Shown in pieces: positions 930 through 23,521 of a DNA stretch of 64,000 nucleotides. Numbering within the stretch: position 1 is the first letter of the stretch; every line of letters begins with the position of its first letter. Below the pieces are notes generated by a model, which worked only from the letters and a program-made list of their open reading frames with translations, was not told the origin of the DNA and made no database searches. The position numbers and the translations under genes were made by a program. The stretch lies in assembly GCA_965237525.1 (NCBI GenBank), contig CBDEFO010000007.1:672001-736000 (forward strand). Reading direction: 5' to 3'. Source of the stretch: Candidatus Latescibacterota bacterium. GTDB lineage: Bacteria > Latescibacterota > CBDEFO01.

Positions 930-1924
930 TCATCTGCTTCGACTTGATCTCATCCCCTCGATGAAACGCACGGCATTCCCTGAGAAGTGATCCTCGATCT
1001 CCTCTTGAGTCAATCCTAAAATGTTCGCCACCTGCTGCTCCTGGCGCAACTGCTCGTAAATCACAAACGTCGGTGTAGGATCGCAGTGAGAAAGTTCCGG
1101 AAGACCCTCGAAGTAGTCCCAGGCTCGGACATAGCTTATGTACTTGCCGCGAGAACACTTGGCCACGATGTTGTCCGAGCCGAACATCACTCGTTTTCTA
1201 TCCACATGTTTCATCAGCAGATAGTGCGAGAATATCTTGTTCACCGCCGAAGTGTCGTACCAGATATTCGGCATGTCCTTGAGTACGTAGTTCGACTCCT
1301 CCATAATGAAGGCGTTGAAGGCCCGGGCACAGTGTGCCAGGAACCACTGGGCCTTCGGGTCCTCTTTAGTATAGTACTGCAGATCCTTCAAGTTTTCGGG
1401 ATCAGCAGCCCCGGTTTTCTTGGAAAGATGCATGGTGATCGCCAGCCCCATGTCGTGCGCTACCTCGATTAAGGACTTGGGCAGGAAATCCTGAATCCGA
1501 CAGTTGACCGGATCGGGGACGAATAAACGATAGGGCTTTAATCCAAGGAAGTTGTGTTTTGTTACTTTAGCGGCGACGCAGTCAGGCGTCATATCCGGCG
1601 TAACCACCATGTTGACCTCGGATTGAGGGTCCTCCGCCATCTGTGCCGCCATCCAATCGTTGTGGCCCTCTAGATCCATGCCCGGAATCGGGCTCCCCAG
1701 GACCAGGTAGTGTATCTTACGACCGGGGTACAGCTTTGCCGCCCAAGCCAGGTGGTTCTGGTAATCTACCTCCCAGCGTTGACCTGTGGGAGGGTCATCG
1801 ATGCGCCTTTATGTGCCTCCGACCAGATGTGGGTGTGCGTGTCGTGAATCACCGGGGGCACAACGTCCTCCAATTCCTTTTCTCAGATATCGCGGTCCAA
1901 GCTTCTGTAATAAATAGTTCCCAT
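930..1924 (-). pseudogene. Amidohydrolase_2 family protein, disrupted near its N-terminus
   Basis: ATG at 1924 reads MGTIYYRSLDRDI*EKELEDVVPPVIHDTHTHIW, with an in-frame TGA at 1883-1885 and an HxH motif. A frameshift near 1775 leads into EVDYQNHLAWAAKLYPGRKIHYLVLG, which joins ORF 930..1679 (LAHCAR, YDTSAV, MFGSD). Confidence 0.8.
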
Positions 1925-2507
1925 GAGTTTTCACTCACATATATGTAGCATCAAGCGCATTGAACCGCGGCGGTCACTATAGGTTGCTCGATCTAATTTT
2001 CGCTGTTGTTGAGCAACTGATGCTTGGTTTTGTATGGTAGATATGCGGCATCTCCCTCTTTACTGCTTAGGACTCAACATGCCCTTAATAAAGTATTACC
2101 AAGGAGCTTCCCAATTCTGGAAGGATCGTTCGAAGAAAGTGAGAAATCAGTGGTAGGACACCTGCTTCGGCTGCAATGCCTGATGCAGAAACAAAGAGCC
2201 TGCAATCAGGGCAATTTACTTTCTTTCGAAGGTAAGAGAGCACTGATGGAACGCTATGCAGGGACGAGGGCACTTCGCTACTTCGTGGTTTGTTCACACA
2301 TCTCCTCCCATCTGGGGTGACAGCAGATTACGTAATGCTCACTGCGCCTCGCCCTAGGGTGCGGTAGCCAATCCCTGTATTGGATAGGTGTATTCAAATC
2401 AACAGAGGGGCCAGCTCAGACCTGCCGCTTGGTCTTGATAGGTCTCTTGTATGCTACCGAACCACCGCTACTAGAAATAAAATAGCCCTGCGTGACACCT
2501 TGCAGTA

Positions 2508-8423: not shown

Positions 8424-8818
8424 CAGGGCGTGATAGATGGGATTTATAATCGTCAGTCTTTTTATGTTTGCCACCTTCAGTCAGTTTATGAAGTTGACTG
8501 TGCACAAAGGATACAATCGCTTTGCCATAGCAACCATAAACTATTTCATTGCCGCTCTGGCGGTGGGCTTGTATGAGCTGAATATAGGGATTTGTAAGTT
8601 CAACGGGAAAGTATTATGGCTTGGGATATTGGCGGGCATCTCTTTTACCGCGGGTTTGATGGCTCAATTCAGAGGAATAGGGATAGGAGGGCTGTCAGTA
8701 ACTCAGACTGTATCTAGGCTCTCCGTGTTGGTTCCTATCAGCCTGTCGATAATCATCTGGCACGAGACTCCAAGTTCGGGGCAAATAGCAGGGATACTAT
8801 TCATCGTGTTGGCCTTAG

Positions 8819-10337
8819 AAGCCTTGTGAAAAACCCTTAGATTCAGAAAGTAGTATAGAACAAGCATTGATAAAGCAGCTCCGATGTATTATATTATGTT
8901 ATTGATAATATTATACATGGAGGAAACAATGACCCCACAAAAGCAGGAACAGACAAATCCGATGTTTCACTATTTTCAGATGGAGGATTTAGTTCCCGAG
9001 GATCATATCCTTCGTCAGATTGATGAGGCAGTTGATTTTTCATTTGTACGAGACGTTGTATCAGATTGTTATTGCCCTGACAATGGCAGACCCGGTATTG
9101 ATCCTGAATTAGTTGTTCGAATGATCCTTATTGGCTATCTGTATAATTTGAGTGAGAATCGGCTCTGTCAGGAAGTGGGGATGCATGCGGCATATCGGTT
9201 GTTTTGTCATCAGACATTTGATGATGCGGTTCCGGATAGGAGCACGATCAACAAGCTTCGCAATCACAAGTGGGCATCCAGTGGGTTGTTTGAACGGATA
9301 ATGCGTCAGGTAGTCCAGTGTTGCATAGATGTCGGTCTTGTGAGCGGTAAACACCTTAGTGTCGACGGTACTCAGATACAAGCTGATGCTTCAGTGAAAA
9401 GTATTGAGCCGATAGAACCCCCTGTTTCTCTTGATGATTATCTCAAGGGAATCGGTTTTGAAGGTGATAAGACAAAGGGTAGGTCCGGGCATCCTCAGGA
9501 TAAAGACTTTCATGGTGAAAAGTGGACGAACCAAACACACCGTTCGACTACAGACCCCGACGCGCGCTTATACAGCAAATCGAAGGGCAAAGGGGCTTTT
9601 CTCTCGTTTATGGGCCATGATCTGATCGACACAAAAAGCAGAGTAATCCTTGAGACTCAGGGCACGCAGGCGACAGGGACAGCAGAGCCCGAAAGTGCCC
9701 TTAAGATGGTAGATGACCTTGAAACATACACCATGCCCAAAGACATTCAGACACTTAGTGCCGATACCGGTTACGGTTCTGGTAATTTTATCGCTGATGT
9801 ACTTGACCGGGGAATCATACCCCATATTCCTCTGCGAGCCGATGAGAAGATTGAACCGATTCCTACATGGAAAAACAAGACAAATTCAGCACATATTCAG
9901 GCCGAACGCGATAGAAAAGTGCGAGAGGCGAAAGCCAGAAATCATGCACGGTCTATCTCATTAACAGCTGACTACAAACTCTCCCGGAGACTCCGTAAAC
10001 GCAGTGAACATATCTTTGCTGAAGCCAAGCAACAACACGGTATGGGACGAGCCCGTTATAGAGGACTAGCCTCACTGAATGAACAGTTGAATCTTGTTGC
10101 AACAGTACAGAATCTCAAGAGGCTTGTATCTTTCATAAGAAGGGGGAAAGCGTCTATGTGTGCCCTGTCTGTCAAAGACAGTGCATCCTGTTCTTCAAAC
10201 AGCTCCTATTCCTTGCTGACCAGAACTCTGATAAGACTATTTTGCTTATTCCACAGCAAAACGATACGATATGCTACTCTTTGACCCATAATCGGCGCTT
10301 CAGACGCTGCCTGGGACATAACTATTTCACAAGGCTT
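8819..10337 (+). mobile_element. IS1182-family insertion sequence, copy 1 (1519 bp)
   Basis: 13-bp TIRs AAGCCTTGTGAAA / TTTCACAAGGCTT and a TTAG target duplication (8815-8818, 10338-10341). Confidence 0.92.
8929..10284 (+). CDS. IS1182-family DDE transposase
   Basis: DUF772-like N-terminus (VPEDHILR...GRPGIDP) and catalytic motifs SVDGT, SADTGY and EHIFAEAK. GGAGG RBS before ATG 8929. Confidence 0.9.
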   Translation: MTPQKQEQTNPMFHYFQMEDLVPEDHILRQIDEAVDFSFVRDVVSDCYCPDNGRPGIDPELVVRMILIGYLYNLSENRLCQEVGMHAAYRLFCHQTFDDAVPDRSTINKLRNHKWASSGLFERIMRQVVQCCIDVGLVSGKHLSVDGTQIQADASVKSIEPIEPPVSLDDYLKGIGFEGDKTKGRSGHPQDKDFHGEKWTNQTHRSTTDPDARLYSKSKGKGAFLSFMGHDLIDTKSRVILETQGTQATGTAEPESALKMVDDLETYTMPKDIQTLSADTGYGSGNFIADVLDRGIIPHIPLRADEKIEPIPTWKNKTNSAHIQAERDRKVREAKARNHARSISLTADYKLSRRLRKRSEHIFAEAKQQHGMGRARYRGLASLNEQLNLVATVQNLKRLVSFIRRGKASMCALSVKDSASCSSNSSYSLLTRTLIRLFCLFHSKTIRYATL

Positions 10338-10947
10338 TTAGTGTTGCTGAGCAAGAAAAGTAGCGTGGTCGTCTCCGAGAATTCGAGTAGATGGTCTGTG
10401 TGGATTGTGCTTTCACTTTTTATCCCTGCAGGTGCGAGCTCGACGATGTCGAAATTAGTGCACGAGGTGGGCTTGGACGACTACAGATCAGCCTATCTTT
10501 TTGTGCTTTATATATCTGCGACAGTTTTATCGGGGGCAGTGTTTTATTTTAAGAGGGATAAGATAAGCCGAGTGGAAGTTCTTATAGGGGTTTTGTTGGG
10601 GTTATGTAACGTGTCAGGAGTGTGGAGTCTGCTGATAGCTTTATCACAGCTCAAAGGTGTGGTGGCCTTTCCTTTTATGAGCTCGGGCGCGGTGATCATA
10701 GTAACTATATTGTCTACGGTGATATGGAAGGAGCATCTGCCATTGAGAGGTGTCTTTGGAATCCTGTGCGCTGCAGCGGCGCTGATACTTATAAATCTGT
10801 GAAATTACCCTATTTCCCCTCTACTGTGAGCCGCATCACAGTAGAGATGCTAATATTTGATTACCTTTGACAATGGGGCAATTTTGAATTACTCGTTGCC
10901 GGAGCGTTTTCCGGATTTTTAGGGCTTTAACAATAAAAAGGCATACG

Positions 10948-13900
10948 ATGAGAAAAATGCTCATATTTCCGGCTCTGCTCCTTGTAATACTATCCTTCGG
11001 GGCGGATGTTCAAGCACAACAAAATAGTAAGTACGTTGAACATCAAGTGATTGTTAAGATGAGTGAAAAGATTCAAGCAGCGGATATCGTTAGTATGAGA
11101 GAGAACCTTAATGCTTCAGTGCTCAAGAAATTATGGATCGTTGACGCTGAACTTTGGGAAACACCGGGAATTACCGTGGAAGATGCTATCTATCAATACC
11201 GTAATGACCCTCGTATCGAATATATTGAGCCGAACTATCGTGTCTGGGCTGTGGAAACTATCCCGAACGATAGCAGCTTTTCTCAGCTTTGGGGATTGCA
11301 CAATACTGGGCAGACAGGCGGAACATCCGATGCGGACATCAATGCTGTTGACGCCTGGGATATTCAGACTGGCACTGATGTCTTAATAGGCGTCATAGAT
11401 ACAGGCGTAGACTGGACGCACGAAGAACTTGCGGATAATATCTGGACTAATCCGGGAGAGATCCCAGATAACGGTATTGATGATGATGGAAACGGTTACA
11501 TCGATGACGTCAGAGGATGGGACTTTGTAAACAAGGATAATGATCCTATGGACGACAACGGTCACGGAACTCACGTAGCCGGGACCATTGCTGCTGTCGG
11601 AAATAATGGAATAGGCGTTGTTGGAGTCTCTTGGTCGGCACAAATAATGCCACTTAAGTTTTTGGGAGCCGATGGTTCTGGAATTACCTCCGATGCGATT
11701 TTAGCTATAGAATATGCGATGATGATGAGCGCAAAATTAACTAACAATAGTTGGGGTAGCAGTGGATTTTCCCAGGCTTTATATAATGCGATTGCTGTTT
11801 CAGGGAACGCTAACATCCTCTTCATAGCCGCCGCAGGAAATGGAGGTGATGATAATATCGGAGATGATAATGATCAGGACCCTCACTACCCTTCCAGCTA
11901 CGATTTGGACAATATCATTTCCGTTGCCTCCACGAATCATAACGATGCTAAATCTTCCTTTTCCAACTTCGGCTTTACGTCAGTCGATCTGGGCGCTCCG
12001 GGCTCAAGTATTCTCAGCACCGTGCCAGGAGATACCTACAGCTTTCTCAGCGGGACCTCTATGGCGACGCCACATGTGTCCGGCGCTGCCGCTTTGATTT
12101 GGGCTCAATATCCAGATCTGACGAATCTTCAGGTCAAGAATAGGATTGTGAGCACTGTAGATCCGATCCCTGCGTTAGATGGCAGATCGGTTACAGGTGG
12201 AAGACTGAATGCCTTTGTTGCATTAGCAGAACCGGATAGTATCCCACCGGCTGCCGTGACCGATTTAGCCGCAGCAGACCCGACCTCAAATTCTATAACG
12301 CTTACATGGACAGCCAGCGGGGATGACAGCGCCTTCGGCACATCAGCGTATTATGATATCCGATATGCAACCTCTCCGATCGATTCCGGGAATTTTGATT
12401 TGGCTACTGAAGTTTTGAACGAACCGGATCCTCAAGAGACTGGTTCTTTGGAGACGTTCACAACAGGTGGACTAGGTTTCAATACGACCTACTATTTTGC
12501 CCTGAGAGTTTTTGATGAGCAGGGGAATGGGTCAAAAGTTTCTAACTCGCCATCGGCTGCGACGTTGGGCAAACCTGATATCTCAGTTACACCGGATTCT
12601 CTGAGCGATAGTCTGCTCACAGCAAGCACATCCACTCAAATCCTTACTATATACAATGTAGGAGAGGGAACGTTAGACTTTACTTTTCCGGATTTTGCTT
12701 CTGCCGCTTTATTAAACACGCCAGGGATTGAAAGGAACGATGTCTCAAGTCGTTTTGAACATTTAGGACTCGAAAAGGGGCTGACAGATCTGCGAGAGGG
12801 GAATCCCCTCATTTTAGGAGCAGGAGGCCCAGATGGCTTTGGCTATCGGTGGATCGATAGCGATGAACCGGGTGGACCCATCTTTAACTGGATTGAAATA
12901 TCGAAAGTCGGGACACCGATATTGTTACTTGATGATGATGTTGAGGAAGTCACTCTGCCTTTTACCTTTCCGTTTTATGGAGAAGCAAAGACAACCCTCA
13001 AGATCTCGTCGAATGGCTATCTTACGTTTGGTGCAGATGGGACAGATTTCTCAAATGATCCTATTCCAGATCCTGTTGATCCCAATGACTTAATTGCGCC
13101 ATTTTGGGACGATTTGAATCCGAGCGCTGACGACACTATCTTTTACTATCACGACACTGATCAGAATCGATTTATTGTGCAGTACACTGGGCTTCCTCAC
13201 TATAGCGCTGGAGGTCCCTACACCTTCCAAGTTATCCTCTACACTGATGGCAGTATGCTCTTTCAGTATCTGGATATGCTTCCTCCTTTGGATAGTGCCA
13301 CGATAGGTGTCGAAAACCGAGATGCTTCCGATGGCTTACAAGTAGCTCTTAACACAGACTTTATCCATGATAGTCTCGCCGTTAGTGTCTCAGCTATTCC
13401 TCAATGGTTAAGCCTTAATCCTGTATCTGGCACTGTTCTACCGGGTTCATCGGTGGACATTGCTGTGAACTTCGATGCAACAGGTTTGAACGGCGGCAAT
13501 TATGATGCGCATATTGTGATTGCCAGCAACGATCCGGATGAGCCACAGGTACGAGTTCCTGCGCATCTGCATGTGACAGGCGTGCCGGATATTGCTGTTT
13601 CTGCTGATACTTTGGATTATGGCTTTGCCCTCATTGGAGCATCTGTCGACGATACGCTGATTGTCTCGAATATAGGGACCGATACATTGACGGTGAGCAG
13701 CATTGCATCGGATAATCCAAATTATACCGTAGATTTGACCGGTCTTAGATTAGCTCCCGGAGAAAGTCAGGAGGCGTTGGTAAGTTTTGCGCCGGTAGAT
13801 ACAGGAATAAGTAGCGGGACATTGACGATAACAAGTGATGTTCCGGATGCACCCATGGTGACTGTGACGCTAACTGGCGAGGGATTAATTGCGCCGAATA

Positions 13901-16018
13901 TTTCTGTTTCTCCAGATTCGTTAAGTGCAGATTTGCGAACTGGAGAGACATCGACACAGTTATTGACAATCAAGAACACCGGTGGCAGTGATTTGAATCT
14001 TGATATCTCGATTGAAGGAGTGGCAGCTGCTTCAGTGTCGGTAGAAGTTCGTTCCAGGAGTTTCGAGCGAAGATTAACTATTCAATTGCAGGATAATCCA
14101 CAAAAGGAATGGAGCGACTATCGGCAAATTCGTCAGGTAAAGACGGCGATGAAGAAGCTACCTCTCGAGCAAGATGCTCTGAGAATGTCGCTTCCTGTTG
14201 TGATAGAGGATCCTGTTGGTGATGGCGGCGTTGTTGACGTAACCGTTCTACGAGGCGCCAGTACATCGAACGAACTTCAGATCGAGATGGAATTTAATAC
14301 AGAAATTGATCCATTCGAATTTGGCGGTTTTCTTTCACTTGACGTAGATCAAAACCCCAGTACAGGTCTTCCTCCAAGTTTCGGGATCGCTGGACAAGAT
14401 ATCGGTGCAGAATATGAATTTCGGTTTTTCACAGTTAGCAGCGGTTTTGTGGGACTTTATGATGTCATATCAGGTTTTGTAGGTGCCTATCCTGTTGAAG
14501 TTGGGATATATACCTTGCGTTTTTCTGCACCGCTGTCTGATATTGGCAATGATGATGGAAACATGGATGTCACGGGAGCTATAGGAGACGTATTTGGCCC
14601 TACGGATTGGCTCCCAGATGCAGGTCATGGAACTATCAGTGGTGTCAGTTGGTTGTCAGTAACGCCTACCATGGACACTGTGCCAGCGAGTTCATCGGTG
14701 GATGTTGGAGTGGCCTTCGATGCCGCACATCTTAATGGTGGCGATTATGATGCACATATTGTGATTGCCAGCAACGATCCGGATGAGCCAGAAGTTCGAG
14801 TTCCTGCATATCTGCATGTAAGGGAAAATAGCTCGCCCGGCTCCTTTACCCGATTACTCCCTGCAGATAGCAGTCTTGTCCTGGCTCAAGCCGTAATCTT
14901 CCGCTGGACGGCGGCTCCCGATGTGGATACGATTATCTATTCGCTGTCCATCAGCGTAAATAGGATCGATATGACCTTCACCATAGAAGACACGACACTG
15001 ACGATTGATTTCCAGACGTTCGGCTTGCCGAACGATCGGCTTCCGGTGACGTGGTCGGTGCTCGCCTCCGACGGCATCTTGACCTCGTCGCCGACCAACG
15101 GCGACGGACACTTCACGCTGAACAACCTCTTCCTGTTCGGCGATCCTTCGGGCAACGGTTCAATCACCGCTTTTGATGCGACATTGGTGCTGCGGCACTC
15201 CGTGGGGCTTTTCACGCTGGCAGGCAGTGCCGCGGTGGCCTCGGATGTCTCCGGCAATGGCCTGATTAGTGCTTTTGATGCCTCCTCGATCCTGCAGTAC
15301 GTCGTCGGGCTCATCGACTGCTTTCCTGTCGATCCGGGCTGTGGGACACCACTGGCTAAGAGGACAAGCGTTAGAGGTACACTCGGCTGGTCTGATGTCA
15401 GATCGGTCGATCTTTCCGAACTTGTTAGTCTGCCTATCCTCTGGAGCGGAGAAGTAGGAAGGGTTACTTCAGCGCAGTTAACCGTCCACATAGACCCGAT
15501 GCAGGCTGCAGTTGAAAAAGTAGTCGCTCATGTACCTCAAGACTGGCAGTTGGTCTATAGCGTGGGGGACAGTGCGCTGTATGTGGCGATGGCCGGTGTG
15601 ACCCCGATCTCGGTCGGCGAGCTGGTGACCATTACAGTGCAGGTGCACGATCCAGTGGCGCAGGTGACGCTGCACGGCACGGGGTTTGTGAATGAAAGTG
15701 TCACAGGAACTCGGCGTGGTGACGATCGGTCAGGTGCCGACAGAATACGCGCTGGAGCAAAACTTCCCAAACCCATTCAACCTCACCACACAGATTATGT
15801 ATCAGTTGCCAGAGGCTTCGGAGGTACACCTGGTCATCTACGACCTGTTGGGTCAAAAGGTCCGGACTCTGGTGAACACCCAACAGGCACCAGGGTTCTA
15901 TAGAGTCCAGTGGGACGGACAAAATGACGCAGGTGTGGATGTCGCAGCAGGTGTCTATCTGTATCGAATCCGGGCTAAGCACTACCAACAGACGAGGAAG
16001 ATGTTGCTGTTGAAATAA
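10948..16018 (+). CDS. Secreted multidomain S8 (subtilisin-like) serine peptidase with a frameshift before the C-terminal FlgD/T9SS-like domain
   Basis: Signal peptide and prodomain, catalytic triad IDTG / HGTHVAG / GTSMATPH, FN3, Ig-like repeats, dockerin-like GDPSGNG/SDVSGNG and cohesin-like domains. The C-terminal domain (YALEQNFPNPFN...RKMLLLK) lies in another frame (15692..16018). Confidence 0.9.
13405..14820 (+). repeat. Intragenic duplication of about 170 bp (approx. 13405-13575 and 14650-14820)
   Basis: Both copies encode GG(N/D)YDAHIVIASNDPDEP(Q/E)VRVPA(H/Y)LHV with near-identical DNA. Confidence 0.8.
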
Positions 16019-16198
16019 CGAATAAACTGCATAAGTCTCTGCAAATTCATATAAATCACCACGCAAAAGCACGATCTGTTCCTCTTTCATCTGTCCATCT
16101 GTTCTGCTTACCTTTTCCAAGCAGATATGATTTCCCCTAACCTCGTAAGTATCCTATCATATTCCCGACTTGTGCAGAATGGCTACACGAGTTTTACC

Positions 16199-16227
16199 TT
16201 GACACAGAGGGCTTTTTTAGCTAAATT
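16199..16227 (+). promoter_or_regulatory. sigma70-type promoter
   Basis: TTGACA-N17-TAAATT upstream of the DUF2723 gene. Confidence 0.6.
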
Positions 16228-16272
16228 TCTGGAAGTTCAGATGGCTACGACACGATCTAGGAACGGTGTTAC

Positions 16273-18834
16273 TTGGCAAACAGGGGAGTTATGGTCAATC
16301 ACAAGATGATCAATAGAATCACAGGAGGAATAATATTCTTAACTGTTTTAGGGGTCTATCTGAAGACTGTGGCACCTACGGTCTCCTTCTGGGACTGTGG
16401 AGAGTTCATAGCATCGGCTTATATAATGGGTGTTCCGCATCCCCCGGGGACCCCGCTCTATGTTCTTATAGGGAGGCTATTCAGTCTACTTCCGATAGGA
16501 GGAGAGATCGCCTGGAGGGTTAATATAATATCCTCTGTAAGTAGCGCGCTGGCGGTTCTGATGATATACTTGGTTACTGTACGCTTAATCTTGTTCTGGA
16601 GTGGAATTGGATTTTCTACGATTCAATCACAGACGGAAGGCCTGTCACAAGACCTGTCACTTACGGAGCTTATCCCCGCATATGCAGGCGGAGCTATGGC
16701 GGCGTTCTGTGTGGCTTTTTCAGACACATTCTGGTTCAACGCAGTGGAGGCTGAAGTCTATGGTTCTTCTGTTTTGGTGACTATGTTGGCCGTGTGGCTG
16801 TCGATGTTGTGGATGGAACGGCACGATGATCATGAAAGCGACAAGATATTGCTCTTTATAGCTTACCTGTTCGGATTGGGGAGCGGGATGCATCTTCTGT
16901 CTCTTTTGACTATTCCGAGTATTTTGATTTTGATACTCTTTACAAATGCAAGACCGCTCAAGAATCCTAAACTGTGGATCGCAGCTATATCCCTCTTTAT
17001 TTTAGGATGGTCTACGGTTTTTGCGCTCTACATAAGGTCCGGATTGAATCCGGCTATTGATGAGAATAATCCGGAAAACTTCCGTAATTTTATGCAGTTC
17101 CTTCAAAGGAAGCAGTACGGTCAAGAGAGCTTACTTGTGACTCTATTTAATCGAAAATCGGACTTCTGGGGATTTCAGGTATGGCATATGTTTATGAAGT
17201 ACTTCTTTCAGCAGTTTCCCCTCCCTGACGTGTTTCCATTTTCGCTATTTAGTAGGATCTCCCAGTTCAGAAAAGCTACAGCAAATGAGTATATGACAGT
17301 TAAGATCTCGCTTATCCCTTACATCCTGGGAATCGCAGGGATGTACGTCCATTTAAGGAAAGATTGGAAAAGAGCGCTTGCGTTTGTGGTGTTGTTTGTG
17401 ATTATGGGATTCGGGTTGGTAGTGTACCTGAATATGCAAGATCCTCAGCCCAGAGAGAGGGATTATTTCTTCGTGGGGGCATTTACGATATTCGCCATGT
17501 GGATTGGGATAGCCCTGTCTGGGATCTTAGATTGGTTAGTTAAAAGGATAAGGAGGCTAACAGGGATCGCCTATGCTGTTATAGCCCTCGTGGTGTTGAT
17601 CTTTCTGGCGGTGCCTGCGGCGATGTCAAAAGCGAACTATCACTCTCACGACAGGACAGGGGATTACGTTTCGTTCGATTATGGATACAATATAATTCAA
17701 TCGTGTGATAAAGACGCTATATTGTTTACGAACGGGGATAATGACACATTTCCACTGTGGTTCCTTCAGGAGGTTATGCAGATAAGGAAGGATATTAAAG
17801 TTGTAAATTTGAGCCTTCTGAATACGCCATGGTATATAAAACAGCTGAGGGATTTCGAGCCTAAGATTAAGATAGAGTACAGCGATAATTATATAGATAA
17901 CGTGCTGTGCGGATCGACTGCGGAGGCTGTGATGACCAGGAAATGGGATAAGGAACGGTTCGAAAAGGCGGTGGCCGCTGGGATGAAGTGGAAGATCCCC
18001 TCTCCGGGTGGTAATTATAATATACTCAGGATTCAGGACGTGATGGTCTATAATATCATACATTGGAATAAGTGGGAAAGACCTGTATATTTCGCTGTGA
18101 CTGCGGCAACGTCGAATATGATAGGTTTGAAGAGTGCAGGACATCTGATTATGGAGGGCATGGTCTTCCGCGTTATGAAGGATAAGGTCACAAGTTACAG
18201 AAGCTTGGATCCAGAAAGGTCGAAGCATAACCTGTGGAATGTGTATCAGTACAGAGGATTAAAGGACCCTGAGGTATATAAGGATGCGAACACTTTGAAG
18301 CTGTTGGCAAACTACAGGGCGGCGTATCTCCAGCTTGCCGACGTCTACAGGGTTATGAGAAGACCCGATGAGGCTGTAGAGACACTCGAAAGGTGCGACG
18401 AGTTGGTCCCTATGTACTGGGTGGACTACAGGGTGTCGTCTCAGATATTGGCCGCGGCGGGCAGGCGCGAAGCAGCGGGGGAGTTTTTAGAAAAGGGGCT
18501 GGAAGATGCCAAAAAGAAAGGAACGAACGCTCTTCTTCAGATCGCCTCTTCTTTTATAACGGACGCGCAGAATTACGACAGAGCGGTCAAAGTGTACACA
18601 GAGGTGACAGAGGTATCTCCTTTTGAGAAGGACGCATACTACGGACTCGCACTTGCTCTTGAGAAAAAGCAGGACTACAAAGCCTCACTAGAGACTCTGG
18701 AGCACCTTCTGGAACTTTTTCCTGAAGATGAGAAGGCCAAAAGCGGCATCGAGGGGCTCAAGAAGTTAGCCGATGTGGAGAAAGAGCCAGGGGATGCAGG
18801 AAACAGTGGACAATCTGAGTCGGGAATACCTTGA
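16273..18834 (+). CDS. DUF2723 / TMEM260-like GT-C membrane glycosyltransferase with C-terminal TPRs
   Basis: Motifs APTVSFWDCGEFI, GVPHPPGTPLY, AVEAEVY, RERDYFF and FTNGDNDTFPLW, with many TM helices and a TPR-like tail. The true start may be slightly downstream. Confidence 0.88.
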   Translation: MANRGVMVNHKMINRITGGIIFLTVLGVYLKTVAPTVSFWDCGEFIASAYIMGVPHPPGTPLYVLIGRLFSLLPIGGEIAWRVNIISSVSSALAVLMIYLVTVRLILFWSGIGFSTIQSQTEGLSQDLSLTELIPAYAGGAMAAFCVAFSDTFWFNAVEAEVYGSSVLVTMLAVWLSMLWMERHDDHESDKILLFIAYLFGLGSGMHLLSLLTIPSILILILFTNARPLKNPKLWIAAISLFILGWSTVFALYIRSGLNPAIDENNPENFRNFMQFLQRKQYGQESLLVTLFNRKSDFWGFQVWHMFMKYFFQQFPLPDVFPFSLFSRISQFRKATANEYMTVKISLIPYILGIAGMYVHLRKDWKRALAFVVLFVIMGFGLVVYLNMQDPQPRERDYFFVGAFTIFAMWIGIALSGILDWLVKRIRRLTGIAYAVIALVVLIFLAVPAAMSKANYHSHDRTGDYVSFDYGYNIIQSCDKDAILFTNGDNDTFPLWFLQEVMQIRKDIKVVNLSLLNTPWYIKQLRDFEPKIKIEYSDNYIDNVLCGSTAEAVMTRKWDKERFEKAVAAGMKWKIPSPGGNYNILRIQDVMVYNIIHWNKWERPVYFAVTAATSNMIGLKSAGHLIMEGMVFRVMKDKVTSYRSLDPERSKHNLWNVYQYRGLKDPEVYKDANTLKLLANYRAAYLQLADVYRVMRRPDEAVETLERCDELVPMYWVDYRVSSQILAAAGRREAAGEFLEKGLEDAKKKGTNALLQIASSFITDAQNYDRAVKVYTEVTEVSPFEKDAYYGLALALEKKQDYKASLETLEHLLELFPEDEKAKSGIEGLKKLADVEKEPGDAGNSGQSESGIP

Positions 18835-18898
18835 AGAAAGGAACAGCGAAGCTCAATCGTCTCCATGTAGGAATCTATAGGAAGGAGCTAGGGAGGAG

Positions 18899-19087
18899 AT
18901 GAAGAATTGGATAGACGATAAGGTGCTGGAAAGATGCGTTGAGCCTCTGTACATTTGTGGCTCTATGAATGGAAGTTATATAATCTACGCTCCACACGAT
19001 TCATGGGCTGTTAAGAGGGAAAGGGATTATAAAGGACTGATCGAGGACGTAATAGGCGTGACTGTGGATGTAGTTGGTGAGGATTGA
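18899..19087 (+). CDS. Small hypothetical protein
   Basis: 62-aa ORF with a GGAGG RBS, in operon orientation. Confidence 0.4.
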   Translation: MKNWIDDKVLERCVEPLYICGSMNGSYIIYAPHDSWAVKRERDYKGLIEDVIGVTVDVVGED

Positions 19088-19106
19088 GGATTAAGAAAAT
19101 AATGTA

Positions 19107-19451
19107 ATGGCGGAGCGGATAAACAACTGGCAGGAGATAGTGCTTCCACCGGGATGGTCTGAGGTTTCGGTCCCCCAAAAGGATGGAAAGGTGCACTTTG
19201 ATGGAAAAGTCAGGGAGTTTATACTCGGAGGGGAGAAAAACTACGGGGAGTGCAAAAACAGGATAAGGGTATTCTGGAACAGCAGAAAGGATGAAAAGCG
19301 CGGATGGGGTATATACCAGATGAAAAATGGGAAGGTCGCGTCTAAAATGATCGTAAGAGCAAAGGGGATAGCTCAAAAGGGGAGAGACCCTGAAGAGTTC
19401 CCCACTGAGGAATTATTGGACACAATAGATAGGTTTGAGATCTTCGATTAG
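19107..19451 (+). CDS. Hypothetical protein
   Basis: 114-aa ORF in operon orientation with no recognised motif. Confidence 0.55.
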   Translation: MAERINNWQEIVLPPGWSEVSVPQKDGKVHFDGKVREFILGGEKNYGECKNRIRVFWNSRKDEKRGWGIYQMKNGKVASKMIVRAKGIAQKGRDPEEFPTEELLDTIDRFEIFD

Positions 19452-19502
19452 AGATAGGAGTGCATGGGAGAGTCAAGGATACGATTCAAGAGAGGATAGG
19501 TT

Positions 19503-20465
19503 ATGAAACGGGCATTGATAACTGGAATTACTGGTCAGGACGGATCTTATCTTGCCGAGTTTCTACTGGGGAAAGGATACAGGGTGTACGGCTTAATAAG
19601 GAGGAGTAGTACGGTACATCTTGAGAGAATCCATCATCTGGAGGACAAGATAATTACTCTACCTGGCGATCTTTTGGATCAGAATTCGCTTGTAAGCGCC
19701 CTCAAGGAGTCCGATCCCGATGAGGTCTATAACTTAGGTGCGCAGTCTTTCGTCGCTGCGTCCTGGTCTCAGCCTATACTGACGGGGGAGATCACCGGCC
19801 TTGGGGTTACCAGCCTGTTGGAGTCCATAAAGGCCGTAAAGCCAGACGCTAAATTCTACCAGGCGTCCACGAGTGAGATGTTCGGTAAGGTTCAAGCGAG
19901 TCCGCAAAACGAAAAGACGCCCTTTTATCCGCGCAGTCCTTACGGTGTATCTAAGCTTTATGGCCATTGGATAACTGTAAATTATCGCGAGAGTTACAAT
20001 ATATTCGCCTGTTCCGGCATATTGTTCAACCACGAATCTCCCAGAAGAGGGTTTGAATTCGTAACCAGAAAGATAACAAGCACTATTGCAAAGATAAAGT
20101 GGGGATTGGCAGATAGACTAAGCCTCGGCGATCTGGATCCTGAAAGGGATTGGGGGTTCGCCGGAGACTACGTTGAGTCTATGTGGTTGATGCTTCAGCA
20201 GGATGAGCCGGACGAATACGTCGTGGCTACTGGAGTGGCTCACTCTGTCAGGGATTTCGTGAAACTGGCGTTCGAGTGCGCAGATATGAATTGGGAGGAC
20301 TATGTAGACATAGACAAGCAGTTCTTCAGACCAGCTGAGGTCAATAATCTAGTGGGCGATGCGACCAAGGCAAGAAAAAGGTTAGGCTGGGAGCCGAAGG
20401 TTACCTTTGAGGAACTGATAAAGATGATGGTGGAGTCAGACTTGGTCCTGTTCAGCCGAAAGTAG
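19503..20465 (+). CDS. gmd: GDP-mannose 4,6-dehydratase
   Basis: Motifs [35 protein letters not shown] and NHESPRRG. Confidence 0.97.
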
Positions 20466-20482
20466 AAGTCGTATTATCCCTT

Positions 20483-21604
20483 ATGTATAATATATTAGTT
20501 ATTGACTACAGGGATATTTCCCATCCCGAGGCCGGCGGCGCTGAGGTCCTTGTACATGAAATTTTCGGAAGGTTAGCCAACAGGGGACATAGAATAACAC
20601 TGCTATGTTCAGGCTACAAAGGCGGAAAACTCAAGGAGTATATAGGAGGGATGAGGATCTTAAGGGTGGGCAATCAACACAATTTCAATTTTGTGGTGCC
20701 CTATGTCTACCGCAGGAGACTTAGCAAAAACAGCTACGATGCAATTGTGGAGGATATAAATAAGATCCCATTTTTTATGCCTCTTTTTTCAAATACCTGT
20801 GTCCTGCCTGTGCTGCCTCATATCTTTGGAACGACACTGTTCAAGCAGGCACCTTTTCCGTTGGCTCTGTATGTGTACAGCTACGAGAAACTCATCCCTT
20901 TCGTATATAGAAACTGTAAGATCTCAGTCCTGTCCCAAAGCACGAAGGAAGATCTTATCGAAAGAGGACTGCCCGAGGAGAATCTACAGGTTATACATCC
21001 AGGGGTGGACCGGATTCTATATAATACAGGGGATGGAGTTGCAAAGGACTCTTCCCCGATAATCCTCTACGTTGGGAGGATAAAGCAGTATAAGTGCATA
21101 GATCACGTAATACGGGCTATGCCGAGGATTTTGCATAGGGTGCCAGACGCTCAGTATCTTGTCGCAGGGACGGGAGATTATTTAGATAGTTTAAGACGTT
21201 TGACGTCGAAACTGGATTTAGATGATAATGTTAAGTTCTTGGGGTACATAAGCCATGACAAGAAGGCGGACCTTATGAGGAGGGCGAACCTTTTGGTCTA
21301 TACGTCTCCGAAGGAGGGCTGGGGCTTGTCGGTGATCGAGGCTAACGCCTGCGGGACATGCGCCGTGGGAAGCCGCTCTCCGGGGCTTAAGGACGCTGTG
21401 GTCGATAAAGAGACGGGATTTTTGGTGGAACATGGGGATATAGAGGCTCTTGGGGAGGCGATAGTTGAGGTGCTGTCGAACGATGCCCTTAGGGGAAGAC
21501 TTTCGAGAAACGCCCATGCCTGGTCCCAAAACTTCAGCTGGGAGAGGGCGGCAGATGAGACGCTTGAACTGATTGAGCAGGCGATCGAAGGGACGGATAG
21601 TTGA
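20483..21604 (+). CDS. Glycosyltransferase family 4
   Basis: HPEAGGAE, YVGRIKQYK and EGWGLSVIEANACG (EX7E motif). Confidence 0.92.
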   Translation: MYNILVIDYRDISHPEAGGAEVLVHEIFGRLANRGHRITLLCSGYKGGKLKEYIGGMRILRVGNQHNFNFVVPYVYRRRLSKNSYDAIVEDINKIPFFMPLFSNTCVLPVLPHIFGTTLFKQAPFPLALYVYSYEKLIPFVYRNCKISVLSQSTKEDLIERGLPEENLQVIHPGVDRILYNTGDGVAKDSSPIILYVGRIKQYKCIDHVIRAMPRILHRVPDAQYLVAGTGDYLDSLRRLTSKLDLDDNVKFLGYISHDKKADLMRRANLLVYTSPKEGWGLSVIEANACGTCAVGSRSPGLKDAVVDKETGFLVEHGDIEALGEAIVEVLSNDALRGRLSRNAHAWSQNFSWERAADETLELIEQAIEGTDS

Positions 21605-22578
21605 AGAGATTTCTAATCTCGGCCATAAAGATATGCGTGAGTCTGGGATTGATCGCCCTTCTGCTCTACAAAATAGGTCTTGAGCGTCTCTTTTTGGATA
21701 TAAGTTCTGCAAGGTTGGACTATGTCCTCATTGCGATTTTGATATTTGTGCTGAGCATGTTGTTAGGGGCTGCCCAGTGGTATCTTCTCCTTGTAGCTCA
21801 GGGTATCCAAATCTCTTTTGGCAAGGCTGCCTTGTTCTACTTTATTGGGATGTTCTTCAATAACGTCCTTCCGGGGAATATAGCGGGGGATGCGGTTCGA
21901 GTCTATGACGTAAGGAGACTGTCAGGTGAGGGGAGCAGGGCGTTCGCAGCGACGTTTATGGACAGGTTCGTGGGGTTTTTTTTCCTGATATCCCTTTCTA
22001 TTGCAGCTTTTGCCTTTTCGGACGAGCTTTGGGACTATAGGTTGCTCCTTTTTTCTATAGGATTACTGTGCCTCGTGTCGGCAGGTGCGTTATGCGTTGG
22101 GCTGAGCAGGAGACTGGGAACTTTAGCTGAGAGGGCCGCGCTTGCGGTCGCTCCCACGTGGATAGCTGAGAGGCTAAAGAAGGTGAAGGAGGCTCTATTC
22201 TTGTATCGTTCGAGGCTGAGGCTGCTCTGCTGCGTAGCTTTGATTTCACTGTGCGTTCAAGTTCTGAGGATCGCCGTGCACTACGTCGCAGGTCTGTCGT
22301 TAGATTTGGATGTGGGATTCAAATACTTTCTGGTCTTTGTGCCTTTGGTAGCTATATTCGGGAGCGTTCCTATCTCATTTGGAGGATTGGGAGTAATGGA
22401 GACTATAGAAGTTCTATTCTTTAGTCTGTTAGATGTGGAAAGTTCTACTGCTTTTTCCATAGGGCTCCTGGCTCGGTTTGCAGGTATAGTTTCAAGCGTT
22501 ATAGGAGGAGTCCTATTTGTGATGAGAAGAGGCGAGAGGGAACCACAGGGTTTGCAGGTACAGAGACTTCGAGATTGA
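21601..22578 (+). CDS. Lysylphosphatidylglycerol synthase TM-domain / flippase-like membrane protein
   Basis: Motifs FFNNVLPGNIAGDAVR, DRFVG and PISFGGLGVME, multi-TM. Confidence 0.85.
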   Translation: MKRFLISAIKICVSLGLIALLLYKIGLERLFLDISSARLDYVLIAILIFVLSMLLGAAQWYLLLVAQGIQISFGKAALFYFIGMFFNNVLPGNIAGDAVRVYDVRRLSGEGSRAFAATFMDRFVGFFFLISLSIAAFAFSDELWDYRLLLFSIGLLCLVSAGALCVGLSRRLGTLAERAALAVAPTWIAERLKKVKEALFLYRSRLRLLCCVALISLCVQVLRIAVHYVAGLSLDLDVGFKYFLVFVPLVAIFGSVPISFGGLGVMETIEVLFFSLLDVESSTAFSIGLLARFAGIVSSVIGGVLFVMRRGEREPQGLQVQRLRD

Positions 22579-22579
22579 G

Positions 22580-23521
22580 GTGAGAGCAATGCAGGAACCC
22601 GGATATATACGCATATATGAGTCCGGCCAGTTTGAAGATAGAGTCGAAAAGGCACTGTCTCTCCTTGAGGATTGCCGCGTGTGTCCTCGGGATTGCAGTG
22701 TGAACCGACTCAAGGATGAATGGGCGGTGTGTCACACCGGACGCTGGTCGGCCGTGGGGAGCTGTTTTCCTCACTTCGGCGAGGAAGATTGCCTGAGAGG
22801 ATGGAACGGATCGGGAACTATCTTCTTTTCACACTGCAACTTAAAGTGTATCTTCTGTCAAAATTTCGACATAAGTCAGGAGGGCAAAGGGAGAAAGGTA
22901 AATCCGGATGAACTTGCGGGGATGATGATAGAGCTTCAGGAAAGGGGTTGTCACAACATCAACTTTGTGACTCCTGAGCACGTGGTGTCCCAGATGATGG
23001 AGGCGCTTCCCATCGCAATCGAGCGCGGCCTTCATCTCCCTTTAATCTATAATACGAGCGGGTACGATTCGTTGGACAGTCTGGAACTCCTGGACGGGAT
23101 AATAGACATCTATATGCCCGACTTTAAGTTCTGGGATTCTGAGACCTCCCGAAGGCTCGTCAAAGCTAAGGGCTACCCCGAGGCTGTAAAGGCCGCTGTC
23201 GTGGAGATGCATCGGCAGGTGGGTGATTTAACTTTTGATGAAATGGGCTTGGCAAGGCGAGGCCTTTTAGTTCGCCACTTGGTTATGCCCGGGGGATTGG
23301 CTGGAACTCGGGATGTGATGAGGTTCATAGCTCGCCCGATTTCCCCTGATACATATCTGAATATAATGCCTCAGTACAGGCCCGCGGGGAAAGCCCATCT
23401 TTATTCCGAGATAGACAGGTCTATAACCGCTGCAGAATTCGAGGAGGCTATAAGAATAGCCGAGGAGGAGGGGCTGCATCGTTTCGACGAGCGGCGGAAG
23501 AGTTTTCTGAGACTGGGGTAA
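22580..23521 (+). CDS. Radical SAM protein (PflX-like)
   Basis: Motifs CRVCPRDC, HFGEE, CNLKCIFCQN (CxxxCxxC) and LLVRHLVMPG. Confidence 0.88.
   Translation: MRAMQEPGYIRIYESGQFEDRVEKALSLLEDCRVCPRDCSVNRLKDEWAVCHTGRWSAVGSCFPHFGEEDCLRGWNGSGTIFFSHCNLKCIFCQNFDISQEGKGRKVNPDELAGMMIELQERGCHNINFVTPEHVVSQMMEALPIAIERGLHLPLIYNTSGYDSLDSLELLDGIIDIYMPDFKFWDSETSRRLVKAKGYPEAVKAAVVEMHRQVGDLTFDEMGLARRGLLVRHLVMPGGLAGTRDVMRFIARPISPDTYLNIMPQYRPAGKAHLYSEIDRSITAAEFEEAIRIAEEEGLHRFDERRKSFLRLG

Follow-up and report, generated by a model that had tools for sequence, protein, structure and literature searches.

The 64,000-nucleotide stretch of DNA analyzed here (the window) comes from a Candidatus Latescibacterota bacterium and corresponds to C7:672001-736000 of its genome (G000; 4.58 Mb, 96.6% complete). 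It carries the gene of a DUF2723 glycosyltransferase together with the genes of a glycosyltransferase of family GT4 and of a flippase-like UPF0104 protein. These three genes are a conserved unit across several phyla, in which the gene of GDP-mannose 4,6-dehydratase (gmd) is a variable member. On balance, we consider it just probable that this module builds, flips and transfers the first sugar or sugars of a Bacteroidota-type O-glycan onto the Ser or Thr of D-S/T-hydrophobic motifs in exported proteins. This analysis establishes the gene content and its linkage, the conserved residues, the predicted fold and a non-random use of the motif; its new elements are the cross-phylum module and motif tests controlled for protein family. 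The original prediction, made from the window alone, had proposed such a system outside the Bacteroidota with a secreted protease encoded upstream as one substrate. The host is indeed not a member of the Bacteroidota, as the DUF2723 proteins or cluster members of two same-phylum relatives are labelled Candidatus Latescibacteria. The gene set and its co-orientation were likewise confirmed by open reading frame (ORF) calls and profile searches; the protease, DUF2723, gmd, GT4 and flippase-like genes all lie on the + strand:

10948..15903, + strand: secreted S8 protease with signal peptide, prodomain, S8 domain (residues 142-404), fn3, NIDO-like and choice-of-anchor D Ig domains and a dockerin-like part
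15692..16018, + strand: out-of-frame C-terminal FlgD-Ig or type IX secretion system (T9SS) type A sorting-like domain of the protease (PF13860, E 2e-12; TIGR04183 above its cut-off)
16199..16227, + strand: sigma70-like consensus site upstream of DUF2723, TTGACA-17-TAAATT (10/12 matches; function unsupported)
16273..18834, + strand: DUF2723/TMEM260-like (GT117) transferase of the glycosyltransferase C (GT-C) type with periplasmic Rossmann-like and tetratricopeptide repeat (TPR) domains (PF11028; probable start ATG 16291)
18899..19087, + strand: possible 62-aa ORF, called by our own gene caller only
19107..19451, + strand: 114-aa ORF with no Pfam or NCBIfam match, likely an insertion
19503..20465, + strand: GDP-mannose 4,6-dehydratase (gmd), single copy (TIGR01472, 436 bits, cut-off 415)
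20483..21604, + strand: GT4 glycosyltransferase; its subfamily is tightly associated with DUF2723 in gene neighborhoods (profile and orthologue linkage)
21601..22578, + strand: UPF0104/LPG_synthase_TM protein, predicted flippase of a lipid-linked sugar (PF03706, E 2e-42; TIGR00374 above its cut-off)

The DUF2723 protein matches PF11028 with 184 bits, against a curated cut-off of 24.2, and aligns with human TMEM260 (9rql) at E 1.4e-18, with patchy identity. In TMEM260, the donor-binding residues D52, H67, R264 and Y267 and the base D441 are each described as essential in the accessible part of one source (10.64898/2026.03.17.711096), and the available text of another reports an inactive D52A variant and mentions distant bacterial homologues (PMC10214176). 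An alignment counted by hand places these five residues at D41, H56, R279, Y282 and D489 (ORF numbering), and the equivalents are invariant in 18/18 DUF2723 sequences of the phylum. The acidic residues D52 and D441 of TMEM260 are thus kept; the original prediction had named a catalytic acidic residue of TMEM260 as a point to check. For R355 of transmembrane helix 10, the aligned stretch begins only at human residue 356, and an invariant R394-E395-R396 lies just before it. In the structure model (pLDDT 81.8, pTM 0.79), the protein adopts a GT-C fold, and its Rossmann-like and TPR domains lie outside the membrane; TPR folds are matched at residues 713-840. The best fold matches, with Z scores between 20 and 25, include the protein-acceptor enzymes STT3 (24.7), AglB (22.4), Pmt4 (22.1) and PglB (21.6); the TMEM260 structures 9rql-9rqn were matched by sequence and are absent from the fold-search results. 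The enzyme is predicted to act on protein at the D-S/T motif.

DUF2723 is present in 112/121 genomes of the phylum and in 50/52 of those of good quality. Among 14 control genomes, PF11028 matches a single one, that of B. thetaiotaomicron, where PMT_2 and STT3 are unmatched. G000 also encodes two shorter PF11028 paralogues. One of them (C8:1055951-1057909; L002) has a Gly at the position of the essential Asp52 (window D41), and the other (C8:262926-264881; L003, L228) lies near a GT2 gene resembling polyprenol-phosphate-sugar synthases (C8:267790). Tandem or near-tandem duplicates of the long form were seen in L047, L048, L144 and L208, which belong to family f6 genomes, Carboxylicivirga and G101. 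Seven of the 18 DUF2723 proteins have a D-S/T-hydrophobic motif within their last 20 residues; those of the window and of G001, a same-genus relative genome used for orthologue comparison, carry none anywhere.

The linkage of the module was followed within and beyond the phylum. In 20 phylum loci, DUF2723 has a flippase-like neighbor in 8, GT4 in 5 and gmd in 1, the last in a same-genus genome. The GT4 orthologue was detected in 17/121 phylum genomes and lies within ~4 kb of DUF2723 in 14 of these 17 (coordinates compared by hand). It recurs in 35 of the 65 cross-phylum genomes introduced below, in 31 cases within ~2.5 kb of DUF2723 and in 4 on another contig, and is found in 0/15 genomes without a long DUF2723. 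Twenty cross-phylum loci were read, 17 of which had been chosen for their GT4-DUF2723 linkage; UPF0104 is present in 15 of them, a GT2 orthologous to G000 C3:308458 in 13, a short-chain dehydrogenase/reductase (SDR) epimerase in 10, a YfhO-like gene in 6 and a true gmd in 1. The neighborhood conservation that the original prediction had proposed as a check therefore holds for GT4 and the flippase-like gene and fails for gmd, which adjoins DUF2723 only in L034 and in L213, a Zixibacteria locus with the window order DUF2723-gmd-GT4-flippase. A fusion of the GT4 and flippase genes, suspected from long open frames, was rejected, as these are separate ORFs. In most of the other-phylum loci read (L207, L209-L212, L214-L221), the cluster follows the riboflavin operon and nusB. 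The riboflavin operon stands alone in G000 (C8:1442257-1446340), indicating that the GT4-flippase-DUF2723 cluster has moved.

Within the window, DUF2723 and gmd are separated by the two small ORFs, which the original prediction did not mention. The 114-aa ORF stands beside DUF2723 only within the same genus, is 92% identical in G001 and has weak best look-alikes in the Atlas (<=0.81). A promoter of its own had also been proposed for DUF2723. The promoter and terminator scan of the window remained at chance level, with 22 sigma70-like sites against 18.5 expected from shuffles, so the site at 16199-16227 is no evidence of a promoter.

The substrate side of the proposal was approached through the upstream protease. 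Its ORF is frameshifted near 15698-15702, with a net change of -2 bases relative to the intact 1690-aa orthologue of G001, which had been missed in the original prediction. The FlgD-Ig/T9SS-like C-terminal domain (CTD) is in frame in G001 and in another frame in the window, so that the window protease lacks the in-frame C-terminal sorting domain of T9SS-like cargo. The same frameshifted form occurs in contigs of the runs X1, X2 and X4, of which X1 and X2 may be the source of the window, and may therefore reflect a genuine loss of outer-membrane export at the strain level. A low-depth contig of X5 instead shows a different insertion, of a single base. Since the proposed glycosylation would take place in the periplasm, it would not depend on the CTD, and the upstream protease is on that account a plausible and likely substrate. 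The original count of about 15 motifs outside the catalytic domain was reproduced residue by residue: D-[ST]-[AILVMT] occurs at 430, 460, 550, 554, 729, 782, 808, 887, 902, 912, 990, 1243, 1327, 1348 and 1541, with 0/15 in the S8 domain. In the stalk alone, 13 motifs were counted against 7.2 expected from shuffles (p=0.02, post hoc), and 12 against 3.5 expected from the family baseline of DUF2723-negative genomes (p=3e-4).

A comparison with homologues gives a sharper view of these sites. The best 120 of 871 hits yielded 119 homologues, of which 99 have a CTD, 17 have none and 3 partial ones were left out; the observed/expected ratio (O/E) of the motif is 0.27 with CTD and 0.66 without. At nine window sites (460, 550, 554, 729, 808, 887, 902, 990 and 1243), the motif is present in 0-4 of the ~99 CTD homologues and 0-3 of the 17 others, which typically have T-S-L, G-T-V or R-T-L where the window protease has its D; the fold therefore has no need of the motif. 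In columns with Asp in <20% of homologues, the window protease has Asp at 8/53 positions before [ST]-hydrophobic and at 14/539 elsewhere (p=3e-4), and it shows 0 such gains of Glu, Asn or Gly. The G001 orthologue retains 13/15 motif positions, two with an altered third residue. Site 782 is DSA in 9/17 non-CTD homologues and NSA in 67/99 CTD homologues, and site 912 is similar. Plain avoidance of the motif in CTD-bearing homologues, suggested by the ratios 0.27 and 0.66, had to be softened: for the homologous part in the named-genome set the means are 0.56 and 0.57, and the spread alone differs. Motif loading and avoidance within one protease family recall the T. forsythia cargo and the P. gingivalis gingipains of the Bacteroidota, as far as these are covered by the accessible part of PMC8729774.

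The protease is no dedicated partner of DUF2723. This possibility was rejected from the neighborhood counts, since the protease lies upstream in 1/20 phylum loci, that of the same-genus genome, and in 0/20 loci of other lineages; an S8 protease upstream in L050 is a different, FG-GAP-type protein. The adjacency is genus-specific and thus probably incidental; that it may be incidental had been allowed for in the original prediction.

Further evidence on the motif comes from genomes with and without DUF2723. A stalk scan of GTDB genomes gave 71 loci, and 65 genomes were searched with the DUF2723 protein; 12/65 had no match and 3/65 weak ones only (E 1e-12 to 1e-13), which gave 15 negatives, labelled Acidobacteriota, Cyanobacteria, Bacillota, Planctomycetota and Deltaproteobacteria. 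Eight of the 71 loci were dropped (1 in the wrong frame, 6 second loci of the same genome and 1 from a Nitrospira-labelled genome with many divergent copies). In the stalk family, motif O/E ranges from 0.00 to 3.67 with a dispersion of 6.3 in the 48 DUF2723-positive genomes and from 0.20 to 1.05 with a dispersion of 1.3 in the 15 negative ones (F-test p=0.001), and the dispersion of six control motifs is <=0.91 in the positive group. Restricted to the stalk-homologous part, the dispersions are 3.1 and 1.1 with equal means (F-test p=0.02). BamA, Prc and PBP1a together contain 119 motifs against 75 expected (1.58) in 15 Latescibacterota and 43 against 61 (0.70) in 13 negative genomes, with p=9e-4 per genome, where several negative-group BamA loci are distant Omp85 paralogues; eight control motifs fail to separate the two groups in the same pooled counts. 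Cytoplasmic flank proteins gave 61/57 (1.07) and 14/18 (0.78), with p=0.34 and low power on the negative side (14 motifs). At the level of the phylum, exported proteins, unlike cytoplasmic ones, bear signs that the motif is under selection.

A number of results weigh against the module as the starter of D-S/T glycosylation. The presence of DUF2723 coincides with an ancestry of the Fibrobacteres-Chlorobi-Bacteroidetes (FCB) type and is confounded with lineage, so that any gene of that ancestry would correlate equally well. The compared genomes include kin and are non-independent, and the completeness of the negative ones is not given. As the groups are lineages, the tests set DUF2723-bearing lineages apart in their use of the motif without showing DUF2723 to be the cause. 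The GT4 orthologue was not found in those of the 65 searched genomes that are labelled Bacteroidota, Rhodothermales, Calditrichota or Marinimicrobia, and the flippase-like gene had a weak or no match in 4/5 Bacteroidota-labelled genomes; the module can therefore not be carried over to the Bacteroidota. Other candidates for a GT-C enzyme or ligase are also available in G000, with 8 PMT_2 matches above the cut-off, 2 Wzy_C and 2 YfhO-like proteins (STT3 was not found there in a PF02516 search), and YfhO and Wzy_C are matched in B. thetaiotaomicron too. Finally, GT-C enzymes with lipid or glycan acceptors, such as ArnT (Z 22.4), ALG12 (21.9) and AftB (21.8), match the structure model about as well as the protein-acceptor enzymes, which means that the fold does not name the acceptor.

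These last observations point to the main rival explanation, which we judge possible but fairly unlikely: the D-S/T system would be present in the phylum, but started by a YfhO-like, Wzy_C or PMT_2-TPR protein, and the module would decorate lipid, lipopolysaccharide (LPS) or an existing glycan in the manner of the Gtr/Arn systems. The combination of synthase, flippase and GT-C enzyme, the logic of these three-component systems, is recognizable in the gene set of the window. The YfhO-like gene in the same operon in 6 of the 20 cross-phylum loci and a GT9 gene in the place of GT4 in L039 would fit this explanation as well. It is opposed by the fact that the sole characterized member of the family is a protein O-mannosyltransferase, whose acceptor-side base (D441) and TPR hand are kept in the window protein, that the core of the Bacteroidota glycan begins with mannose and that almost every genome of the phylum has DUF2723, with partner genes that vary.

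Within the proteome of G000, for which proteins were predicted with our own gene caller and sorted into heuristic export classes, the motif signal is weak, and the results of this paragraph also count against the proposal. Class-wide O/E is 0.98 for proteins with a signal peptidase I (SPI) signal, 0.94 for lipoproteins and 1.03 for cytoplasmic proteins. De-replicated exported proteins gave an O/E of 1.10 and a dispersion of 1.42 (interaction z=1.1); the comparison samples gave 1.02 and 2.55 for ~430 kb of Carboxylicivirga and 0.89 and 1.08 for 400 kb of a deltaproteobacterium. With one protein per family, the O/E is 0.99 and three control motifs are as dispersed (1.33-1.38) as the motif itself (1.38), in a test whose internal-repeat filter was ineffective and flagged nothing. 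The secretome-wide enrichment that the original prediction had put forward as a check thus finds weak support at most in this genome and is non-specific after de-replication by family. BamA, Prc and PBP1a of G000 contain 6 motifs against 5.6 expected, and a TPR-turn test (replacement of DP by DS) showed no difference (2/122 vs 2/162). The 46 CTD-bearing proteins have 192 motifs against 127 (O/E 1.51), with the control D-h-[ST] also at 1.42. For the protease itself, the whole-protein composition shuffle is insignificant (15 motifs vs 10.7 expected, p=0.11).

Such figures would be expected if the motifs were no glycosylation sites and reflected lineage drift together with a pattern that is common at strand starts in Ig-like stalks of acidic, Ser/Thr-rich composition. 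The depletion of some DUF2723-negative stalk proteins (O/E 0.2-0.3), which is as strong as that of positive ones, agrees with this explanation. We regard it as improbable, since the motif is rare among homologues at the nine protease sites and the gains are specific to Asp before [ST]-hydrophobic, since only the D-S/T-hydrophobic motif is overdispersed, and only in DUF2723-positive genomes, and since three unrelated periplasmic families agree.

The G000 signal resides mainly in large CTD or Ig-like proteins, for example C7:809305 with 33 motifs against 9. Tandem IPT repeats account for part of the heavy tail, and raw counts such as 50 vs 13 were therefore left out of the evidence. Three giant surface proteins (C1:94342-99096, C3:340771-346461 and C7:809305-814929) combine tandem IPT/TIG, choice-of-anchor D and cohesin/dockerin-like parts with 33-50 motifs each and are the best glycoprotein candidates of G000; the presence of cohesin- and dockerin-like modules may point to scaffold assemblies. 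In the exported classes of G000, D-[ST]-A is underrepresented (O/E 0.55-0.69, vs 0.97 in cytoplasmic proteins) and D-[ST]-L is raised, so the third-residue preference of the motif may differ from that of B. fragilis. A PorV-like gene (C4:434871; PF19572, E 5e-23) and about 47 CTD-bearing proteins suggest a T9SS-like export route outside the Bacteroidota.

The IPT-repeat proteins also bear on a narrower explanation, in which DUF2723 would be a domain-specific protein O-mannosyltransferase like TMEM260, acting on the G-G-x3-T strand of IPT/TIG repeats independently of D-S/T. The human enzyme reads a different sequon, an extended pattern of IPT domains, according to the available part of its source (10.64898/2026.09.21.753134), and this difference from D-S/T is a further point against the proposed acceptor. 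Besides the large IPT-repeat proteins, three G000 proteins matching a relaxed human-type pattern and the presence of the TPR domain, the recruiter of IPT peptides in the human enzyme, are compatible with such a specificity. We nevertheless consider it very improbable, as an enzyme present in 112/121 phylum genomes fits a general role better than a narrow one, the IPT-repeat proteins themselves carry many D-S/T motifs, and the identity to the human enzyme is patchy, with no match reported in the TPR part.

Returning to the module as the core-glycan machinery of D-S/T glycosylation, we infer every biochemical step of the following route. A GT2 encoded elsewhere in G000 (candidates are C8:267790 and C3:308458) would load a hexose, probably mannose, on polyprenyl phosphate. 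The GT4, a member of a family of retaining enzymes, would then add a second sugar, probably from a GDP-6-deoxyhexose derived from the Gmd product. This product can lead to GDP-D-rhamnose, and D-rhamnose is likelier than L-fucose because no GDP-fucose synthase (Fcl) scored over its cut-off in G000. The UPF0104 protein would flip the lipid-linked mono- or disaccharide, and DUF2723, holding the donor via D41/H56/R279/Y282 and using D489 as the base, would glycosylate unfolded chains as they leave Sec. A second locus of G000 (C3:297691-309426; L225:7691-19426) may supply and ligate the outer glycan. It encodes a GT4, a GT2, Wzx, another GT4, a UDP-GlcNAc 2-epimerase, a glycosyltransferase, a methyltransferase, a YfhO-like GT-C protein and an ArnC-like GT2, and orthologues of several of its genes stand directly 3' of DUF2723 in Eisenbacteria, Krumholzibacteria and Zixibacteria loci. 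Upstream, a hisB-like gene rather than metG was recognized by eye.

Broader and more tentative, and falling somewhat short of probable, is the proposal that D-S/T O-glycosylation goes back to the ancestor of the FCB group and its allies and is no speciality of the Bacteroidota. The long GT117 would then be the missing initiating transferase, and the GT4-UPF0104-GT117 operon of Latescibacterota, Eisenbacteria, Krumholzibacteria and Zixibacteria a core-glycan machine of second-sugar transferase, core flippase and transferase that has been scattered or replaced in the Bacteroidota. The outer glycan would be ligated by the co-located YfhO-like protein, and human TMEM260 would, if this is true, be a specialized relative of a general bacterial O-mannosylation enzyme.

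Further observations concern the surroundings of the locus. A DDE transposase gene (PF05598/PF01609; window 8884-10284) interrupts an EamA transporter gene (8437-10802) that is intact, with 280 aa, in G001, and near-identical copies of this element are found elsewhere in G000, e.g. at C3:317197, C8:254899 and C7:252273. Directly 3' of the flippase-like gene lies a radical SAM gene (22580-23521); it is in two pieces in G001 and was unseen in the other DUF2723 loci read, and is therefore probably outside the module. A listing of RNA holders had no entry for the region. At window 930-1948, a 249-aa minus-strand amidohydrolase-like ORF and an adjoining short ORF are possibly a broken gene.

The accessible part of a 2025 review lists the core flippase, oligosaccharyltransferase and ligase of Bacteroidota O-glycosylation as undiscovered, describes a core that starts with mannose and proposes a search among homologues of eukaryotic O-mannosylation (PMC12871550). 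In the available portions of two further sources, no transferase is named for this system (PMC8729774, PMC10897501). A literature search on DUF2723, TMEM260, GT117 and GT-C in bacteria, which covered titles and abstract openings with most subscription papers outside its coverage, found DUF2723 in one paper and none linking the family to this pathway. The locus thus offers a candidate for the first-sugar enzyme in which every TMEM260 functional residue that can be mapped is present, and the conserved linkage in sister phyla supplies candidates for the flippase and the second core transferase. The long-open question of the first-sugar enzyme becomes testable in laboratory Bacteroidota. If the proposal is true, a major envelope modification extends to several uncultured phyla, and a bacterial model becomes available for a human disease enzyme.

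Among known systems, the Gtr/Arn systems differ from the window in that it has GT4 and UPF0104 instead of a linked GT2 polyprenol-phosphate-sugar synthase and a GtrA-type flippase; the GT2 linked in 13/20 other loci sits elsewhere in G000. Archaeal UPF0104/AglD-like clusters (arCOG00899 with a PMT/STT3-like enzyme and a glycosyltransferase) likewise combine a cytoplasmic glycosyltransferase, UPF0104 and a GT-C enzyme in one neighborhood, and UPF0104 proteins are regarded as predicted flippases of glycosylation pathways in the accessible part of the source (PMC5898192). In the window, by contrast, the GT-C enzyme is a GT117 and the linked transferase a GT4, and flippase activity of UPF0104 is a prediction. 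Human TMEM260 (GT117, PF11028; 9rql, 9rqm, 9rqn) shares the five invariant residue equivalents and the domain order GT-C, Rossmann-like and TPR. It uses dolichyl-phosphate mannose (Dol-P-Man) as the donor and an extended IPT-domain sequon as the acceptor, whereas the window gene sits with GT4 and a flippase-like gene. The system likely works like the O-glycosylation of Bacteroidota (B. fragilis, T. forsythia, P. gingivalis, P. intermedia and F. johnsoniae; available parts of PMC12871550, PMC8729774 and PMC10897501), as a candidate rather than a demonstrated member with a putative glycan and activity. It differs in its Latescibacterota host, in the lower dispersion of the motif in exported proteins (1.42 in G000 vs 2.55 in the Bacteroidota control sample), in a linked GT4 for which the searched genomes labelled Bacteroidota gave no match, and in a Wzx far below the NF058658 cut-off (63 bits vs 720) with no metG among the genes listed beside it. 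It resembles the Bacteroidota system in T9SS-like CTD proteins with a PorV-like gene, in a Wzx-glycosyltransferase locus reminiscent of the outer-glycan locus (metG, wzx, glycosyltransferases) and in the same D-[ST]-[AILVMT] motif, apparently selected in exported proteins.

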